A stretch of 64,000 nucleotides of DNA, taken from the NCBI GenBank assembly GCA_002402825.1, contig DHGP01000004.1:19259-83258 (forward strand), read 5' to 3'. Every line of letters starts with the position of its first letter. The stretch's first letter is position 1. Positions 14,454-63,947 of the stretch are shown here, in pieces. The stretch comes from Firmicutes bacterium UBA4795. GTDB lineage: Bacteria; Bacillota; Desulfotomaculia; Desulfotomaculales; Nap2-2B. The position numbers were made by a program, and so were the translations under genes. The notes under the pieces were generated by a model. That model saw only the letters and a list, made by a program, of their open reading frames with translations. It ran no database searches and had not been told where the DNA came from.

Positions 14454-15142
14454 CTAACCAGAGCAATTTCCTCAATAATCTTTTGGGCGGCGGCATACGG
14501 CTCTGAGGCGGCGGTAATTGGCCTTCCTACCACTAGGTAGTCTGCCCCCTTTAAAATAGCTTCTTTTGGGGTAACGGCTCTTTTATGTTTATCCAGGGAT
14601 TCTCCGGCCGGTCTTATGCCCGGGGTTACCACTAAAAGCTTTTTACCTATTGCTTCTCTAATCAGGTCAATCTCAAGGCCTGAAGCCACAACGCCGTCAC
14701 AGCCGTACGTGGCGGCTTTTTGGGCCCGGTAAAGGACCATCTCCTCTAAAGAGCAGGGGAAACCTAAATCTAAAATGTCGGTCGTATCCAAACTGGTTAG
14801 TACCGTTACCGCCAGCAACTTTAGGCCCGTGTTTCCCCGTCCCTTTACCGCTTGTTTAATAATCTGGGTATTTCCGTGAATAGTCAAAAAAGAAACCCCA
14901 AGCTTTGCGGCCAGAGCCACTACTTTTTCAACGGTTTCAGGAATGTCAAAATATTTCATATCCAAGAAAACTTTTTTACCTTGCTTTAAAAGCCAGGGAA
15001 TTATCTCTGAACCACAGCTTAACTGCAAAACAACACCGACTTTAAAAAAGTCTACCATGCCATCAAGTTTTGTTACCAGTTCTTTAGCTTTATCAACCTG
15101 GTCAACATCAAGGGCGCAAATAAGCCGCTCTCTTGGTTCCAT
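14450..15142 (-). CDS. pyrF: orotidine 5'-phosphate decarboxylase
   Basis: 230 aa with LICALDV, FKVG, the [10 protein letters not shown] catalytic Lys/Asp context, and VVGRPI. Confidence 0.93.
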
Positions 15143-28950: not shown

Positions 28951-28965
28951 AAACTACCTTCCTAA

Positions 28966-29046
28966 CTCGAGGTTCGAAATTCGAAATTTGAGGTTCGAAA
29001 CTGGTTAAAATTATTTTGAACTTCGGACTTCTAATCTTAAACCTCA
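28966..29046. repeat. heptamer-periodic imperfect inverted repeat (CTCGAGGTTCGAA family)
   Basis: The left arm reads CTCGAGG TTCGAAA TTCGAAA TTTGAGG TTCGAAA. After a spacer the right arm reads TTGAACT TCGGACT TCTAATC TTAAACC TCA. It shares the CTCGAGGTTCGAA core with 61929..61993. Confidence 0.7.
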
Positions 29047-34209: not shown

Positions 34210-34325
34210 ATTAGAGCAGGCTTTCTTAATAAGCTTTCCCAAAGGCAAAAAGGCAAGCGCTAAACTTGTTTAAATTTAATACTTTTGCCCTGGTATAAAA
34301 TGAGATGATAATTTCTGGTTTTAGG

Positions 34326-50236: not shown

Positions 50237-50271
50237 TTTAAAAACCCCTTTGTGCCTTTGTGCCTCTTATT

Positions 50272-51483: not shown

Positions 51484-51517
51484 TCTGACGTCTGACGTCT
51501 GACGTCCGACGACCGAC
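51484..51517. repeat. heptanucleotide tandem repeat (TCTGACG x3, then TCCGACG and ACCGAC) between spoIIIAD and spoIIIAE
   Basis: A direct read shows about five tandem 7-mers. It lies between the spoIIIAD stop (51521) and the spoIIIAE RBS. Confidence 0.9.
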
Positions 51518-51520
51518 ATT

Positions 51521-57946: not shown

Positions 57947-58002
57947 GGGGCAGGCTAGAAGCCTGCCCTACCGAAGCCTGCCCTACCGAAGCCTGCCCTA
58001 CC
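57947..58002 (-). repeat. REP-like element: three tandem 15-mers GGTAGGGCAGGCTTC, the last completing a hairpin GGGCAGGC-ttcta-GCCTGCCC
   Basis: Read on the minus strand, the first GTAG supplies the polX TAG stop codon (TGG TAG). Confidence 0.85.
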
Positions 58003-59713
58003 ACTGTTTAGCTAAAAAAGCGGTTAAATCACGATAGCTAAGGGTATTAAGCACGTCTTTTGCCTCTAGCCAGCCTCTTCTGGCCGTACGTAAGCCTAAT
58101 TGAAGAAATTCCATTTGTTCTACGGCGTGGGCATCAGTGCCAATACCCAGCTTAACCCCGTACCCGGCAGCCGCCCGCGAAGCACGGTCATTAAGGTCAA
58201 GCCTTTTATAATAAGCGTTAATTTCCAGAACTTTTTTTGCGCGAGCGCAAGCTTGGCATAAGAGTTCTAAATTTATAGGGTAAGGTTCCCGTTCCCCTAA
58301 AAGTCTTCCCGTAGGATGGGCAATAATATGGACGTATGGATGATTAATTGCGGACAGAAGCCGCTTTGTCTGGGTAGCTTCATCTTGTTTGAACCCAGTA
58401 TGGATAGCGGCAATTACCAGGTCAAGTTCCTTTAATATTTCATCCGGATAATCAAGATTCCCGTCAAGGTTAATATCTACTTCGGCCCCGCATAAAAGTT
58501 TTACGTCCTGGTTTTTTTGGTTAAAAGTCTTGATTTGAGCTATTTTTTCCTTCAGGGCAGTTATTTCTACCCCCCTGGCTATTCTTAGCGACGGAGAATG
58601 ATCGCAAATGACCACCCATTCCAGCCCCATTTGCCGTGCCTTGGCCGCAATTTCCGCCACAGTATTGGCCCCGTCACTATATCTTGAATGGACGTGTAAA
58701 TCTCCTTTAATATCTTCCGGGCTGATTAGCCGGGGTAGTTTTCCTGCCGCGGCGGCTTCAATTTCACCCCAGTCCTCACGTAATTCAGGCGGAATAAAAG
58801 GCAGGCCAACGGCGGCAAAAATCTCTTCCTCCGTTGCTCCCCCAAGCAGCCTTTCTCCCTTAAAGATACCGTATTCATTAATTTTTAAACCCATTTGGCT
58901 GGCTAACTCCCTAATCCGGATATTGTGAGCCTTAGAACCCGTAAAATAACAAAGGGCTGCGCCATAGCTTTCTTTCTCTACTACCCGCAAGTCATATTGG
59001 AGACCTTCCTTGGTGCGTATTGTTGTTTTTGTTGGCCCGCTTACCAATACTTCGGCCACGATAGGCAACCTGGTATAAAATGACATCACTTCTTCGGGAT
59101 AGGGAGAAGAAACTAAAAGGTCAATATCCTTAACCGTTTCCTTCCATCTTCTGGTGCTGCCCGCCAGGCTAATTCTTTCTACCGGGGCTTCCTGACTTAA
59201 TACTTTAACGATATTTAAAGCCTGAGGCAAAACGCTGCCTAAAGGGAAACGTGCCCTTCCTTTCCTTAATAAAGCAATTCCTTTTAAAATATTTTCCTCT
59301 GTTTTGGCTTTAATCCCCGGCAAATTTCGCAACTTTTGATCCTGGGCCAGTCGTTCCAGTTCCTCTATGCCTGTTACCCCCAGTTTTTCGTATAACACTT
59401 TAGCGGTGCGCGGCCCAACCCCTGGAATGTTTAAAAATTCAACCAAACCTGGCGGTATTTCTTTTTTTAATTCCTCGTACTTTTTTAAAGTGCCGGTAGT
59501 TAAAACCTCGTTAATTTTTTGGGCCAGGTCTTTGCCAATTCCCGGTATAGCGGTTAAATCGCCGCGTTGGGCAATTAAGGCAATATCCTCCGTTAAATTT
59601 TCCACACTTTGGGCTGCTTTTTGGTAAGCCCGGACCCGGAAAGGGCTTTCGTTTTTTATTTCCAGGATATTAGCAATACCTTTAAAAATAGCGGCTATTT
59701 CATAATTTTTCAT
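57998..59713 (-). CDS. polX: family X DNA polymerase with a C-terminal PHP phosphoesterase domain (PolX)
   Basis: The N-terminal HhH motifs include GIGKDLAQKI and IPGVGPRTA. The polymerase beta palm shows GSTRRWKETVKDIDLL. The PHP domain shows GDLHVHS and GTDAH. Confidence 0.92.
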   Translation of the reverse strand: MKNYEIAAIFKGIANILEIKNESPFRVRAYQKAAQSVENLTEDIALIAQRGDLTAIPGIGKDLAQKINEVLTTGTLKKYEELKKEIPPGLVEFLNIPGVGPRTAKVLYEKLGVTGIEELERLAQDQKLRNLPGIKAKTEENILKGIALLRKGRARFPLGSVLPQALNIVKVLSQEAPVERISLAGSTRRWKETVKDIDLLVSSPYPEEVMSFYTRLPIVAEVLVSGPTKTTIRTKEGLQYDLRVVEKESYGAALCYFTGSKAHNIRIRELASQMGLKINEYGIFKGERLLGGATEEEIFAAVGLPFIPPELREDWGEIEAAAAGKLPRLISPEDIKGDLHVHSRYSDGANTVAEIAAKARQMGLEWVVICDHSPSLRIARGVEITALKEKIAQIKTFNQKNQDVKLLCGAEVDINLDGNLDYPDEILKELDLVIAAIHTGFKQDEATQTKRLLSAINHPYVHIIAHPTGRLLGEREPYPINLELLCQACARAKKVLEINAYYKRLDLNDRASRAAAGYGVKLGIGTDAHAVEQMEFLQLGLRTARRGWLEAKDVLNTLSYRDLTAFLAKQW

Positions 59714-61023
59714 TTTGCATTTTTTATTAGCCTTACGGCGCGTTTTTGGGTTTCAAAAAGTATTTCTTCTTCGTCAACGGTTAAAACCTGCTTGTTTTCC
59801 ATTATAAGCTGACCATCTATAATTACTGTTTCTACATCTGACCCTTGGGCCGCGTAAATCAGGTGGGCAAACAGGTCGTGATGAGGATAAAGGTGAGGTT
59901 TTTGCAGGTTGACTAAAATTATATCCGCTTTATACCCCTTTTTCAAAAGACCAATTTCTCTGCCCAGCCCTAATACTTCTGCTCCGTTAACCGTTGCCAG
60001 GGTAAGAACTTGATAGGCCGGCAGAGCCGTAGGGTCATTATTAGCTACTTTTTGTAAGAGCGCTGCGCTATGCATTTCTTCCCACATGTTCTGGTTGTTA
60101 TTACTGGCTGCACCATCAGTTCCCAAGCTAACCAAACAACCGGCGGTTAACATTTTTTTAACCGGGGCTATCCCACTGGCCAGCTTCATGTTACTTTCCG
60201 GATTATGAACTACCCCAACTCTTTTCGCGGCTAAGACGGCAATATCTTCTTCGCTCAGGTGAACGCAATGGGCGGCTGCAACTGGAACCTCAAACATTTT
60301 TATTTCTTCCATAAGCTGAACCGGCGTTGTCCCGTAATCCCGCTTAATATCCTCTATTTCCTGAGCTGTTTCCGCCAAATGAATATGAATCCCCACTTTT
60401 AATTTTTGAGCCAGTTTAATTACTTTTTTTAAAAAGTCAGGCGAACAGGTATAAGGAGCATGGGGACCCAACATTACCGTAATCCGGTTATGGGCCGCTC
60501 CGTGCCATTTATTGGCAAAGCGTTGGCTTAAAGTTAAGCCTACGGTAGAACTGGGAGGTGACTCAATTAATCCCCAGGATAAGCTGGCGCGCATCCCTAT
60601 TTTTTCTACGGCTTGAGCTACCTGGTTCATATGAAAATACATATCGGCAAAAGTAGTTGTTCCTGATTTTATCATCTCCAAGCAGCATAACAATGTTCCC
60701 CAGTATATATCATCTTTAGTAAGTTTAGCTTCCAAGGGCCAAATCTTTTCTTTCAGCCACTCCATTAAAGGCAGGTCATCCGCGTAACCCCGGAAAAGGG
60801 TCATGGCTGCGTGCGTATGAGCATTTACCAGGCCGGGAAGAACCGCCATTCCGGCCGCGTTAATTTCTTTGTCCGGCTTAAAGTCTGCGGGGGTGGTACC
60901 GGCAGGGCCTACATGGGTAATCCAGGGTCCGGTAACGGCAACTTCCCCGTTTTCAATTACTCCCTCACTCCCCTCCCTTTCCATGGTAACTACCGTACCA
61001 TCCCGTATTAATATTTTAGCCAT
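59710..61023 (-). CDS. mtaD: 5-methylthioadenosine/S-adenosylhomocysteine deaminase (MtaD-type amidohydrolase)
   Basis: It has PGLVNAHTHAAMTLFRGYADD, HLAET and GTDGAASNN motifs. Confidence 0.85.
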   Translation of the reverse strand: MAKILIRDGTVVTMEREGSEGVIENGEVAVTGPWITHVGPAGTTPADFKPDKEINAAGMAVLPGLVNAHTHAAMTLFRGYADDLPLMEWLKEKIWPLEAKLTKDDIYWGTLLCCLEMIKSGTTTFADMYFHMNQVAQAVEKIGMRASLSWGLIESPPSSTVGLTLSQRFANKWHGAAHNRITVMLGPHAPYTCSPDFLKKVIKLAQKLKVGIHIHLAETAQEIEDIKRDYGTTPVQLMEEIKMFEVPVAAAHCVHLSEEDIAVLAAKRVGVVHNPESNMKLASGIAPVKKMLTAGCLVSLGTDGAASNNNQNMWEEMHSAALLQKVANNDPTALPAYQVLTLATVNGAEVLGLGREIGLLKKGYKADIILVNLQKPHLYPHHDLFAHLIYAAQGSDVETVIIDGQLIMENKQVLTVDEEEILFETQKRAVRLIKNAK

Positions 61024-61055
61024 TAAATTTCCCCCGTAAAATTATAATTTATTAC

Positions 61056-61122
61056 GAAAACAGGCTAGAAGCCTGTTCTGTCAACCTGCTCTACCACGAA
61101 CAGGCTAGAAGCCTGTTCTACC
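61056..61122 (-). repeat. two REP-like hairpins (GTAG-AACAGGC-ttcta-GCCTGTTC) downstream of the ADH gene
   Basis: The minus-strand read is AGG TAG AACAGGCTTCTAGCCTGTTC gtGGTAGAGCAGGTtgaca GAACAGGCTTCTAGCCTGTTTTC. The first GTAG contains the ADH TAG stop. Confidence 0.85.
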
Positions 61123-62209
61123 TTTGGCATTCAATAATAACTTTCATGGAATGTTTGGCTTCAGTAACCAGCTTAAAGCCAAGCTCTGTTTCAGCTAAAC
61201 CCAAACGGTGGGTAATGAGGCCTTTAACCTGAACATTACCGGCCCGGATTAATTCTAAAGCAGTAACGTAATCGGCAGGACTACCCGCATAAGAGGTAGT
61301 TATGGTTACCCCCTTCCAAAAAAGTTCATTTACCGGCAATGATATGGTCGTTTCTGGGTTTGACGGGGCAAAAAGAAGAATTGTGCCCCCTTGTTCTACT
61401 GTTGATAAAGCCTGGTTTATAGCGCCTTCCGCCCCGGTGCAAATAATAACTAAATCAGCCAGGCGCCCCTGATTAACCTGGCGTATATATGGCGGTAAAT
61501 CTTGGTCAGCTTGAATGGTAAAATCAGCTCCTGAAGACCGCGCCATGTTTAAACGGTAATCTATTAGATCAGTGGCCATTATACATCCTGCCCCCAAGGC
61601 CCGGGCCAGCTTAATATGAATTTGCCCGGCCATGCCACTACCTATAACCAAAACACTGTTTCCTGGTTGCAGGCGGGCCAGTCTTTGACCGCGTAAGACA
61701 CAGGCTAACGGTTCAACAAAAGTTGCCTCTTCAAAGGAGATTGAATCTGGTAGTAAAAATACCCCCCGGTCTACGTTAATAGCCGGCACGCGGACATATT
61801 CAGCAAAGCCACCCGGATCAAGTTTTGTTTGACGCAAGGTCTGGCAAGCTGTATGTTGGTTATTTAAGCAGTAGTAACAAGTATTGCAAGGAACATGGTG
61901 GGCTATTACGACCCGGTCTCCTTCTTTAAACCGGCATTCTCGAAGTTCGAGGTTTGAGGTTCGAGGTTCGAATCTCGAATTTCCAACTTCGAACCTCGAG
62001 TTTGCTCCTTCTCCTACCGCCGCAATTTCACCGGCAATTTCATGACCCAATACCAGAGGTGCTTTAGGGCGGCGGTACCATTCCATTACGTCACTGCCGC
62101 AAATGCCACTGGCTTCCAGGCGTACCAGTAATTCTCCCGGTCTAATTTCTGGTACGGGCATTTCCTCAATCCGCACATCCTGGTTATGGTAATACATGGC
62201 TACCCGCAC
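61118..62209 (-). CDS. zinc-dependent alcohol/polyol dehydrogenase (MDR family, sorbitol/threonine dehydrogenase-like) carrying an in-frame repeat insertion
   Basis: The catalytic Zn site shows GICGSD and GHEIAGE. The structural Zn site is CNTCYYCLNNQHTAC, and the Rossmann motif is GSGMAG. About 23 extra residues (ANSRFEVGNSRFEPRTSNLELRECR) sit between VGEG and FKEGDRV. Confidence 0.85.
   Translation of the reverse strand: MRVAMYYHNQDVRIEEMPVPEIRPGELLVRLEASGICGSDVMEWYRRPKAPLVLGHEIAGEIAAVGEGANSRFEVGNSRFEPRTSNLELRECRFKEGDRVVIAHHVPCNTCYYCLNNQHTACQTLRQTKLDPGGFAEYVRVPAINVDRGVFLLPDSISFEEATFVEPLACVLRGQRLARLQPGNSVLVIGSGMAGQIHIKLARALGAGCIMATDLIDYRLNMARSSGADFTIQADQDLPPYIRQVNQGRLADLVIICTGAEGAINQALSTVEQGGTILLFAPSNPETTISLPVNELFWKGVTITTSYAGSPADYVTALELIRAGNVQVKGLITHRLGLAETELGFKLVTEAKHSMKVIIECQR
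61929..61993. repeat. heptamer-periodic palindromic repeat (CTCGAGGTTCGAA family) embedded in frame in the ADH coding sequence
   Basis: The coding strand reads CTCGAGGTTCGAAGTTGGAAATTCGAGATTCGAACCTCGAACCTCAAACCTCGAACTTCGAG. It shares its core with the intergenic element at 28966..29046. Confidence 0.8.
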
Positions 62210-62256
62210 TTATAATCACCACTCCTTTAACAACTAATAACTAACAACTATTTCGC

Positions 62257-62393
62257 TTAGTACTTGTAACTACTCAGGTTTATAGGGGCAAAGGCACAAA
62301 GGCACAAAGTTTTTTTGCCAGACTTGCAGATCTCTATACGTTTTCATTTCCCTTTGGACCTCTGTGCCTACCTGAATAGTTACTAGTACTTGA
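62257..62393. repeat. long composite imperfect inverted repeat between the aldolase and ADH genes
   Basis: The outer arms TAGTACTTGTAACTACTCAGG and CCTGAATAGTTACTAGTACTT match at 18 of 21 positions. The inner arms AGGCACAAAGGCACAAAG and CTTTGGACCTCTGTGCCT match at 15 of 18. The right arm contains the aldolase TAG stop. The (GGCACAAAG)x2 unit recurs at 50247-50266. Confidence 0.7.
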
Positions 62394-63168
62394 TGCTTTC
62401 GTATATTTCTTGCGCTTCTTTTGGTGAAGCATTTTCGTGCACAATAGCCCGGATAGCTTTAATCATAGCCACCGGAAAGTCATTTTGCCAGATGTTCCGG
62501 CCCAGGTTTACCCCTATAGCTCCTTTTTGCATTCCGTCGTATACAAACTGGAATACCTCAAGTTCGGTATCTACTTGAGGACCGCCGGCCATAACAACCG
62601 GTACGGGGCAACCGCGAACAACTTTTTCAAATTCCTCACAGTAATAAGTTTTTACCAACCGGGCTCCTAATTCAGCCGCAATCCGACAGCATAAGGCCAA
62701 GTAACGGGCATCACGTTTTTCCAGCTCTTTACCAACCGCGGTAACAGCCATTACCGGGAGGCCGTACTTTTCACCTTCGTCAACAAGTTTGGCCAGGTTT
62801 AATAAGGATTCATGCTCGTAATCTGTTCCTACAAAAATAGAAATACCCACCGCCGCTACATTGAGGCGAATGGCCTCTTCCATGGAAGTGGTAATTCCTT
62901 CGTGGGCCAGGTCTTTTCCTACTATGCTGGTACCACCGGATACCCTGAGAATAATAGGTTTTGTTTTTTCAGGAGCGACCGAGGAACGCAGTACTCCCCT
63001 GGTAATAAAGAGAGCGTCGGCATAAGGCAGAAGAGGTTCAATAGTTTTCCGGGGTTCTTCTAGCTTACGCGTGGGCCCCTGAAAATAACCGTGATCAACC
63101 GGCAAAAAACAACAATGACCATCGGCTTGAATAAGTTGAGCCATTCGGTTTTTCATGCCCCAATCCAT
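62383..63168 (-). CDS. class I aldolase of the DhnA/FbaB/LsrF family
   Basis: 261 aa with LPVDHGYFQGP, a (beta/alpha)8 pattern and the Schiff-base Lys region VKTYY. The substrate cannot be assigned from the sequence alone. Confidence 0.7.
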   Translation of the reverse strand: MDWGMKNRMAQLIQADGHCCFLPVDHGYFQGPTRKLEEPRKTIEPLLPYADALFITRGVLRSSVAPEKTKPIILRVSGGTSIVGKDLAHEGITTSMEEAIRLNVAAVGISIFVGTDYEHESLLNLAKLVDEGEKYGLPVMAVTAVGKELEKRDARYLALCCRIAAELGARLVKTYYCEEFEKVVRGCPVPVVMAGGPQVDTELEVFQFVYDGMQKGAIGVNLGRNIWQNDFPVAMIKAIRAIVHENASPKEAQEIYESIKY

Positions 63169-63254
63169 AAAATAACCTCCTTAAAATTTTCTTTAATAGC
63201 TGATAGCCAACCGTTAATATTAACATATTAATTTATAATGAATTTATAATGCAA

Positions 63255-63947
63255 TTATTTATGGCGCAGGACCCCCCCTAAGCACTCCCTTAAATCCTCA
63301 ATACCGTACTTGGAAAGGTAATCCTGACGTAGGAAATTAACGTCTTCACCGGCTAATACCACCGGGTGGCCAATAAGGTCGGCCAGCAAATAAACTTTAG
63401 CTGCCTTTTCTACTACCTGGCAGACAATTAAAGCCTCAAGCGCCGTTCGCCCTACTCCTACTACCCCGTGATTGGCCAGTAAAATCGCGTTATTTTGGGC
63501 TAGAGTTTCAACTGCGACACCAGCTAATTCAGGTGTCCCTGCCCGGGCATAAGGAGCTACCGGTACTTCATTCCCTACATACCGGGCTAAATCCTCTAAA
63601 ATAGGAGGGATAGGCTTACGGGCGACCGCTAAGGCACTGGCAAAGGTACTATGGGTATGCATTATGGCGTTTACGTCATCTCTGGCCTTATAAATAGCCT
63701 GATGTAAACAGAATTCGTTAGAAGGGGGACACACCCCTTCTATTATTTGTCCTTCCATGTTTAAAACAACAATATCTCTGATTTGCAAAGTTCCGTACGG
63801 CAAAATTCTAGGGGTAATTGCAATTAACTTTTCCTGAGGTATTCTGACGGAAAAATTTCCCCACTTACCTGTAACCAATGCGTTTTCAACCATGCGTAAG
63901 CTTATTTTCAAAACCTGTTCCCTTGCTTTTTCGGTGGCTACGGTCAT
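63255..63947 (-). CDS. class II aldolase/adducin-family protein (L-fuculose-phosphate aldolase-like)
   Basis: It has NAIMHTHS and ILLANHGVVGVG, the Zn-binding His cluster and catalytic region of the family. Confidence 0.85.
   Translation of the reverse strand: MTVATEKAREQVLKISLRMVENALVTGKWGNFSVRIPQEKLIAITPRILPYGTLQIRDIVVLNMEGQIIEGVCPPSNEFCLHQAIYKARDDVNAIMHTHSTFASALAVARKPIPPILEDLARYVGNEVPVAPYARAGTPELAGVAVETLAQNNAILLANHGVVGVGRTALEALIVCQVVEKAAKVYLLADLIGHPVVLAGEDVNFLRQDYLSKYGIEDLRECLGGVLRHK

Follow-up and report, generated by a model that had tools for sequence, protein, structure and literature searches.

A short palindromic repeat that is probably translated within a conserved enzyme is described here from a 64,000-nt stretch of Firmicutes bacterium UBA4795 (contig DHGP01000004.1), hereafter the window, which represents the 64 kb of this genome that were covered. 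The repeat lies in frame inside a gene encoding a zinc-dependent enzyme of the medium-chain dehydrogenase/reductase (MDR) family. We consider it to be, probably, a fixed, translated and nearly neutral passenger, that is, a hairpin built of heptanucleotide units, of the type represented by a family of similar elements, that sits in a permissive surface turn of the protein; the origin of the insert is the least certain step of this account. The features on which the argument depends are the following (window coordinates).

61118..62209, minus strand: zinc-dependent medium-chain dehydrogenase gene, 363 amino acids, GTG start
61934..62002, minus strand: codons N70-C92 (NSRFEVGNSRFEPRTSNLELREC), which hold the net 22-codon insertion (from protein alignments, codon view, spacing census and PDB alignment)
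61939..62000, minus strand: 62-nt palindromic core, about 8.9 heptamer units with CTCGAG at both ends (from sequence reading, Tandem Repeats Finder (TRF), pattern count and folds)
61973..62000, minus strand: 5′ arm, on the coding strand CTCGAGG TTCGAAG TTGGAAA TTCGAGA, four TTCGARR units (from direct reading and pattern matches)
61939..61972, minus strand: 3′ arm, on the coding strand TTCGAAC CTCGAAC CTCAAAC CTCGAAC TTCGAG, about 4.9 reverse-complement units that pair with the 5′ arm (from folds and inverted repeats)

Read on the coding strand from 62000 to 61939, the core is simply the 5′ arm followed by the 3′ arm, so that the whole insert consists of two inverted arms, with no distinct internal region to set its termini apart. 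TRF reports a period of 7 at 61940-61971 (4.6 copies, 88% matches), and the pattern TTCGARRTTCGAR, with at most one mismatch, has 13 matches in the window where 0.48 would be expected, each of them located either in the insert or at 28966-28999. Fifty of the 62 core positions are identical to their own reverse complement, and the core folds far better than expected by chance both as DNA (-18.4 kcal/mol, z -4.1) and as RNA (z -6.7; none of 200 shuffled sequences folds as well). At present, the insert is open in five of the six reading frames. The gene stayed open because the net gain of 66 nt is a multiple of three and because neither the TTCGARG unit nor its complement contains a stop codon; of all possible heptamers, one half give tandem arrays that lack stops in each of the six frames. 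A strict run test for heptamer over-representation across the 64-kb window yielded too few perfect arrays to judge. An earlier note on this DNA had quoted the inserted DNA and its peptide correctly for the minus strand and had recognized the 7-nt periodicity and self-complementarity, which the above figures bear out; the coordinates that it assigned, 61929-61993, are off by about 7-10 nt, and its estimate of ~23 extra codons holds as to their presence but, by the spacing considered next, has to be lowered to 22.

The distance between the LGHE and GDR motifs amounts to 46 residues in the window protein; of its 120 nearest homologues, 111 have 24 residues there (GEGV-ERYKEGDR). In the same 111 homologues, as well as in solved structures, the turn at the insertion point consists of three to four residues, in agreement with the in-frame, stop-free insertion into a short turn that the earlier note had described. 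The net gain of 22 codons (66 nt) corresponds to the 62-nt core plus 4 nt, with a boundary that is ambiguous by one codon. Relatives in the PDB align with the window protein as two blocks, such that residues 4-68 and 94-362 match residues 8-78 and 82-350 of ketose reductase 1e3j, and the skipped residues 69-93 take the place of three residues of that enzyme. Structure prediction, which the earlier note had proposed as a check, returned a beta-hairpin extension but left its tip poorly defined: the AlphaFold2 model, based on a 47-sequence alignment, has an overall standard MDR fold in which strands 70-75 and 88-93 prolong a native beta-hairpin, whereas the predicted local distance difference test score (pLDDT) falls below 50 at residues 74-89, the tip of the insert, which is weak evidence of disorder because further stretches of the catalytic domain are modelled with low confidence as well.

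The turn itself appears to be a hot spot of insertions and deletions. Unrelated insertions of 9 residues are found at the same position in two orthologues, namely, GVVNSKKGI in P0065 and a G/K-rich duplication in P0098, each with its own local direct repeats in the DNA, and the site is therefore permissive; outside the clade that shares the palindromic insert, the comparison with orthologues advocated in the earlier note revealed no loop of the insert's length, an outcome that favours the reading given there. At the DNA level, the insertions in P0065 (L214) and P0098 (L215) are independent, 27 nt long and located at codons equivalent to window residue 69; one of them has GGGGATA direct-repeat flanks and contains GAATTCGAAAAA, and the other is a G-rich local duplication.

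Apart from the insert, the host protein is a regular member of its family. The Pfam domains ADH_N (2.2e-24) and ADH_zinc_N (1.2e-21), corresponding to the GroES-like and Rossmann domains, both pass the curated cut-offs; the relatives that rank best in the PDB are ketose reductase, sorbitol dehydrogenase and threonine dehydrogenase; and Foldseek, queried with the model, retrieves threonine and sorbitol dehydrogenases with a probability of 1.00 and a TM score of ~0.8. In the homologue alignment, the columns of C37, H56, E57 and E166, of C108, C111, C114 and C122, of the G190-x-G192-x-x-G195 motif and of D214 are invariant or nearly so, which confirms that, as stated in the earlier note, the zinc ligands and the Rossmann motif are intact. 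From general knowledge of the MDR family, we take the first four of these residues to be the putative catalytic ligands, the four cysteines to bind the structural zinc, the glycines to form the GxGxxG motif and D214 to be the NAD-binding acidic residue.

The insert is by no means young. It occupies the same codon in three syntenic, species-level relatives, denoted L001, L005 (a metagenome-assembled genome (MAG) named Desulfotomaculum sp.) and L006, in which the gene is, respectively, 92.5%, 87.6% and 85.3% identical to that of the window at the nucleotide level, and the identical protein is encoded on contigs of independent assemblies, ERZ27315071 (L007) and SRR5324165 (L008), which are 99.86% and 99.99% identical to the window. 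L006 has a deletion of exactly 21 nt within the insert, equivalent to three heptamers, by which it is short of seven residues, among them those of the conserved centre. The next homologues, mostly from Chloroflexota, are 69% identical and lack the insert. Because the insert is shared at the same codon by four diverged lineages, 7%-15% apart, and has accumulated substitutions along with the 21-nt deletion, the suggestion of the earlier note that it is a very recent hit not yet purged is refuted.

Selection acts very differently on the insert and on the remainder of the gene. Outside the insert, the ratio of non-synonymous to synonymous differences per site (pN/pS, Nei-Gojobori, four genes) is 0.12-0.19 in every pair, indicative of purifying selection, whereas for the insert it ranges from 0.4 to 2.6, a noisy estimate given the 16-23 codons available. 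The changes within the insert are mostly non-synonymous (N/F/Y, S/L, R/K, G/E, V/T, N/P/S, L/H/P and R/Q). Since the total divergence of the insert is below the synonymous divergence of the gene, the constraint is relaxed but perhaps not zero, be it on account of the open frame or of a weak structural or RNA requirement. The tolerated surface-loop insertion envisaged in the earlier note is supported. The RNA hairpin formed by the insert has fared as follows.

Window: -33.4 kcal/mol, z -6.7
L001: -32.7 kcal/mol, z -5.4
L005: -18.7 kcal/mol, z -1.6
L006: -11.5 kcal/mol, z -1.5

The hairpin has thus decayed in two lineages and is not maintained, and the substitutions that distinguish the lineages are not compensatory.

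A second element with the same units is present in the window, in an intergenic position.

28964..29046, plus strand: intergenic relative of the insert, AACTCGAGG TTCGAAA TTCGAAA TTTGAGG TTCGAAA, a 16-nt spacer and four degenerate inverted units

This element, with five TTCGARR units in its left arm, is located between a DUF4125 gene and a gene for the C-terminal subunit of transketolase, just upstream of the ribosome-binding site of the latter, and is identical in five assemblies of the same strain. A metagenome scan with the flanking transketolase subunit found, among the matches listed, relatives of at most 73% identity, and an exact-protein look-up recovered contigs of the same strain only. 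The window contains the 15-mer AACTCGAGGTTCGAA in two places only, one heading the insert and the other the intergenic element, against an expectation of none. The assignment of both to one family in the earlier note accordingly stands for the left arm, but the intergenic copy forms only a weak hairpin (z -0.86).

The resemblance extends to other genomes. A terminus distinct from the repeat, (A)ACTCGARGTTCGAR, which leads into TTCGARR units and then an inverted arm, is common to the two window elements (at 28964 and 62002) and to three further loci, L046 (a Bacillota MAG), L069 (Desulforamulus putei, where the signature heads a -50.7 kcal/mol hairpin upstream of rpsL) and L104 (an uncultured Peptococcaceae MAG), and the inserts of L005 and L006 start with diverged copies of it. 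A looser form of the signature, ACTCGARRTTCGAR, turns up in the window, in the L005 and L006 inserts and in L046, L069 and L104, all of which are Firmicutes, and in only two of ~108 non-Firmicute TTCGARR loci among the matches listed. Because ACTCGARRTTCGAR is confined to Firmicutes save for these two, the comparison supports a putative lineage-restricted family of TTCGARG hairpins with a defined terminus in Peptococcaceae and Desulfotomaculia. The signature is best written ACTCGARG, because the first A of the window copy is derived by parsimony (the ancestral codon being TAC). At L046 (5006-5170), a TTCGAAG array is placed between two ~37-nt direct repeats (GTAAGCGACTTCTCGGAGAGCGTGAGCGCACGG...) ~124 nt apart.

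Beyond this signature, TTCGARR arrays are widespread. A scan for TTCGARRTTCGARRTTCGA with one genome per species gave at least 120 loci in many phyla, although ~70 of these matches could be due to chance for a 19-mer pattern. Most of the listed loci nevertheless reach a length of 4-12 units; an inverted partner array is frequent, and at some loci other heptamer arrays are adjacent. CTCTGTG and GGCACAAAG arrays flank the TTCGAAA arrays of L014 (Thermoanaerobaculales) and L110 (Latescibacterota). We considered and rejected the notion of TTCGARR as a special pan-bacterial element, because in viral contigs composition-matched control heptamers are at least as common (59 and 81 loci versus 36 for TTCGARR), in keeping with the excess of heptanucleotide repeats reported for bacteria in general (PMC4692102, PMC4679880). 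Among the 120 listed loci, at least 15 arrays are located in frame inside Pfam-supported genes from distant phyla, as follows.

Genes with in-frame arrays: RecJ, ABC exporter, DXS, TsaD, Fmt, transketolase, ValRS and Mfd
Further genes with in-frame arrays: aminotransferase, type IV pilin leader, methylmalonyl-CoA mutase fusion, FAD-binding protein, protein kinase, O-antigen ligase and PMT_2-family glycosyltransferase (L128)
Loci with in-frame arrays: L009, L015, L016, L039, L040, L042, L044, L064, L070, L092, L118, L120, L123, L126 and L128

These arrays yield the peptide words FEIRNSK and PRTSNLE. In the ABC exporter, from a member of the Planctomycetota, a hairpin-type array makes up a ~19-residue insertion relative to solved exporters, and in Fmt the array takes the place of a helix of similar length and adds no residues. 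It is possible, albeit somewhat doubtful, that stop-free heptamer arrays and hairpins are a general, cross-phylum source of in-frame insertions, whose net length has to be a multiple of three (steps of three units), and that in Desulfotomaculia such an array additionally spreads as a discrete element starting with ACTCGARG by some mode of copying. A literature search with the literal repeat strings found no paper.

For the dehydrogenase, the sequence comparisons suggest the following course of events. Before the at least four species-level lineages diverged from their common ancestor, the gene would have received a TTCGARG-type heptamer-array hairpin, otherwise intergenic in Peptococcaceae and Desulfotomaculum-like genomes, and we infer that this hairpin was copied from another member of the family, by transposition or by templated, microhomology-mediated copying. 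The landing site would have been an insertion-tolerant beta-turn on the outside of the catalytic domain, and the insert would since have been translated, presumably without any function, as a 22-residue, poorly ordered beta-hairpin extension. Subsequent drift has brought about approximately neutral amino-acid change and erosion of the DNA and RNA hairpin while the surrounding enzyme stayed under strong purifying selection, and one lineage has lost exactly three heptamers (21 nt) by slippage, the smallest change of the array that keeps the frame. In this account, the insertion itself and its age, the dependence on frame, the loosened constraint, the tolerance of the site and the terminus in common with intergenic copies are established by the data.

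The main alternative concerns the first of these steps. The array could have arisen in situ, by polymerase slippage in frame-keeping steps and a fold-back template switch that produced the inverted half, in which case its likeness to intergenic arrays would be coincidental. Heptanucleotide repeats are reported to be, in many bacteria, the long simple repeats with the strongest over-representation, an excess attributed to slippage (Mrazek et al., 2007, cited in PMC4692102 and PMC4679880). Slippage is, moreover, evident at the insert from the 21-nt deletion in L006 and apparent nearby from an AGTTGTT array with three units in the window and six in L001; TTCGARR arrays exist in dozens of unrelated phyla; the counts in viral contigs make convergence plausible; and no target-site duplication is visible. 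However, orthologues without the insert show nothing like a proto-repeat there (GTG GAG CGC TAC), single 7-nt steps would shift the frame of a strongly selected gene, and the non-repeat terminus ACTCGAGG, in which the first unit is CTCGAGG and not TTCGAGG, is common to the insert, the intergenic copy 33 kb away and L046, L069 and L104. Because of the shared terminus, the lack of a proto-repeat and the frameshift cost of stepwise growth, the copied-element origin is favoured, and we regard growth in place as unlikely. A selected role for the peptide, with the 22 residues co-opted for oligomer contact, partner binding or thermostability, would be in line with the retention of the insert in four lineages, with the open frame of every variant, with a divergence somewhat below the synonymous rate of the gene and with the conservation of central FEPRTS/RFE residues in three lineages. 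Yet the pN/pS of the insert is ~1 versus the low values in the rest of the gene, seven residues including that very centre are gone in L006, the pLDDT is below 50, and unrelated insertions of another length occur at the same turn of other orthologues; the functional loop that the earlier note entertained is, in our opinion, quite improbable.

Nor does selection on the nucleic acid, with the peptide as a by-product, account well for the data. The hairpin could act as a translational pause that aids co-translational folding, as an RNase site or stabilizer, or as a protein-binding site, and its stability in the window and L001 (about -33 kcal/mol, z -5.4 to -6.7), a flank substitution in L001 that lengthens the pairing (GCAUUC...GAAUGC) and the reduced divergence of the insert relative to synonymous sites are compatible with such roles. 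They are hard to reconcile with hairpins in L005 and L006 that are no better than shuffled sequences (z -1.5 to -1.6) and with substitutions that do not compensate each other; furthermore, no T-run follows the hairpin, promoter and terminator calling produced nothing at the insert, and searches of the whole window and of 61000-62450 against Rfam gave no relevant family, only a tRNA elsewhere and two sub-threshold chance matches. Altogether, we rate a function of this kind as improbable. Mis-assembly or a pseudogene can practically be dismissed: repeats can in general mislead short-read assemblers, and nothing else was found in favour of an artefact, whereas the same sequence is present in independent assemblies from different samples (L007 and L008), and diverged versions exist in three other species; against a pseudogene stand the intact frame, the pN/pS of 0.12-0.19 and the conservation of all catalytic and cofactor motifs. 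An intein or a translational bypass was likewise considered and rejected, the 22 residues being devoid of splicing motifs and the frame being open and free of stops as well as of a matched codon pair.

Several observations weigh against the passenger account and have to be set beside it. No empty-site allele was found closer than 69% identity, and no target-site duplication was detected in the flanks of the four lineages or in the DNA of insert-free orthologues: the CTCGAG-bounded insert is preceded by GCAAA and followed by AATGC in the window, the corresponding flanks are GTATA and AACGC in L005, and neither pair makes a direct repeat. The mechanism of insertion is therefore unproven, although a short duplication could have eroded; of the boundary alignment that the earlier note had called for, the boundaries came out, to within one codon, and the duplication did not. 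With no duplication, no empty site and only two copies of the family within the 64 kb, the claim that a mobile repeat created the insert goes further than these data, from which mobility can only be inferred. The total divergence of the insert is ~0.4-0.75 of the synonymous divergence of the gene, which points to some remaining constraint, its pN/pS carries the noise of a few codons, a very stable hairpin is still kept in the window and L001, and the AlphaFold2 model scores poorly not only at the insert but also elsewhere in the catalytic domain.

The genomic neighbourhood of the dehydrogenase is conserved. The order class II aldolase, DeoC-type aldolase, dehydrogenase, amidohydrolase is kept in the window, L001, L005 and L006, and in the latter three PolX follows the amidohydrolase. 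In the window, the cluster spans 61118-63947 and 59710-61023, and the amidohydrolase is MtaD-like by Pfam family. Such a combination of genes suggests a route for the salvage of 5′-deoxynucleoside or methylthioadenosine by-products, in which the dehydrogenase would reduce the aldehyde product.

The intergenic regions around the dehydrogenase differ among the four lineages by whole hairpin elements; a turnover of small repeats within this clade is evident, in line with the passenger account. An element resembling transposable elements of the miniature inverted-repeat type (MITEs; window 62259-62390, L001 ~15010-15120) is bounded by the terminal inverted repeats AGTAACTATTCAGGT...ACCTGAGTAGTTAC and contains short tandem repeats, GGCACAGAG / CTTTGTGCC. 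Between the DeoC and dehydrogenase genes, 60 nt upstream of the latter, it is carried by the window and L001 but not by L005 and L006; in the window, AAGTAC is repeated on either side of it, and the region of the DeoC stop is changed. L001 has a second copy between the DUF6657 and tldD genes, flanked by a GTTTA duplication, at a site that is empty in the other three lineages. Between the dehydrogenase and amidohydrolase genes (61059-61117), the perfect palindrome AACAGGCTTCTAGCCTGTT occurs in two copies 40 nt apart; the ~76-nt block that contains it is missing from L001, L005 and L006, which indicates a lineage-specific insertion similar to repetitive extragenic palindromic (REP) sequences, and a related hairpin, GGCAGGCTTC...TAGCCTGCCCC, with a 15-nt tandem triplication, is located at 57958-58002. 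The AGTTGTT array mentioned above (TAACAAC on the plus strand) lies just upstream of the dehydrogenase ribosome-binding site, at 62228-62250 in the window and at 9900-9960 in L001, where a 16-nt GGCACAGAGATCCAAA unit is duplicated as well. Between spoIIIAD and the likely start of spoIIIAE, at 51484-51511, the heptamer TCTGACG (on the minus strand AGACGTC, with the palindrome GACGTC) is repeated four times almost perfectly, in an array that is identical in L007 and L008; their assignment to the 5′ coding sequence of spoIIIAE (open reading frame start at 51519) was rejected, since a downstream ATG is preceded by a GGAAGGG ribosome-binding site and the array is more likely intergenic. Octamer repeats of the GGCACAAA / CCTTTGTG type are found in intergenic positions at 50245-50265, 62286-62309 and 34241-34256, and the CTCTGTG and GGCACAAAG arrays of L014 and L110 are similar to them.

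The insert amounts to a natural experiment on how much foreign sequence a loop of an enzyme can absorb: a 66-nt hairpin has been carried through speciation, shrinking in steps of three units. It widens the picture of selfish DNA within coding genes, for which Rickettsia has been the main source, to an anaerobic, free-living Firmicute and another class of repeat, and suggests that the part of heptanucleotide arrays in giving rise to loop insertions in the conserved proteins of various phyla has been underrated. In annotation pipelines, such inserts split domain matches and inflate apparent divergence, and the loop itself is a candidate permissive site for the engineering of MDR dehydrogenases.

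Several known systems share some of these properties. Rickettsia palindromic elements (RPE) are short palindromes located between genes as well as in frame in unrelated metabolic genes, where they encode a peptide compatible with the fold and are kept across species (Ogata et al., 2000 and 2002, summarized in PMC10969869). The dehydrogenase insert likewise belongs to a palindromic repeat with both intergenic and in-frame copies and is compatible with the fold of its host. By contrast, RPE are ~100-150 bp long, form defined families with a conserved peptide and reside in an alphaproteobacterial parasite, whereas the insert consists of 62 nt in 7-nt units, has no conserved peptide beyond that dictated by the repeat and is found in a spore-forming Firmicute; by analogy, it may be viewed as a counterpart of RPE rather than as a member, set apart by its length and heptamer build, and a kinship in sequence would not be expected. 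Heptanucleotide elements of Geobacter metallireducens (four copies of GGACCGG) are also located ‘within genes as well as between genes’ (PMC2700814), but have a different, GC-rich unit and are described as tandem arrays only, without hairpins made of an arm and an inverted arm, and no evolutionary analysis of translated copies was reported for them.

The short tandemly repeated repetitive (STRR) and other heptanucleotide repeats of cyanobacteria, as portrayed in PMC4692102 and PMC4679880, consist of tandem 7-nt units, sometimes in inverted stem-loop pairs, with a copy number that varies among relatives. The insert resembles them in having at least three tandem 7-nt units and in the variation of unit number, seen in the three-unit deletion of L006 and in the neighbouring AGTTGTT array (three versus six). 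However, STRR repeats are mostly intergenic and described as extragenic, with forward TAACTGA arrays that contain stops, whereas the insert is stop-free, sits inside a conserved enzyme (codons 70-92) and is fixed across species. MITEs and intragenic enterobacterial repetitive intergenic consensus (ERIC) elements are small, non-autonomous hairpin repeats that occasionally form in-frame fusions with host open reading frames (PMC10969869; Delihas, 2007, cited there), but the insert differs from a MITE in lacking a target-site duplication, a unique internal sequence and, within the window, where it was looked for, any link to a transposase. With REP sequences and bacterial interspersed mosaic elements, which PMC3733652 characterizes as extragenic palindromes of 20-40 bp with a GTAG or CGTC head, the insert has in common that it is a short imperfect palindrome, but it starts with CTCGAG, measures 62 nt, is periodic in 7 nt and lies within a gene. 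Collectively, these comparisons indicate that the dehydrogenase insert is best filed under a known kind, that of a repeat element translated inside a gene.

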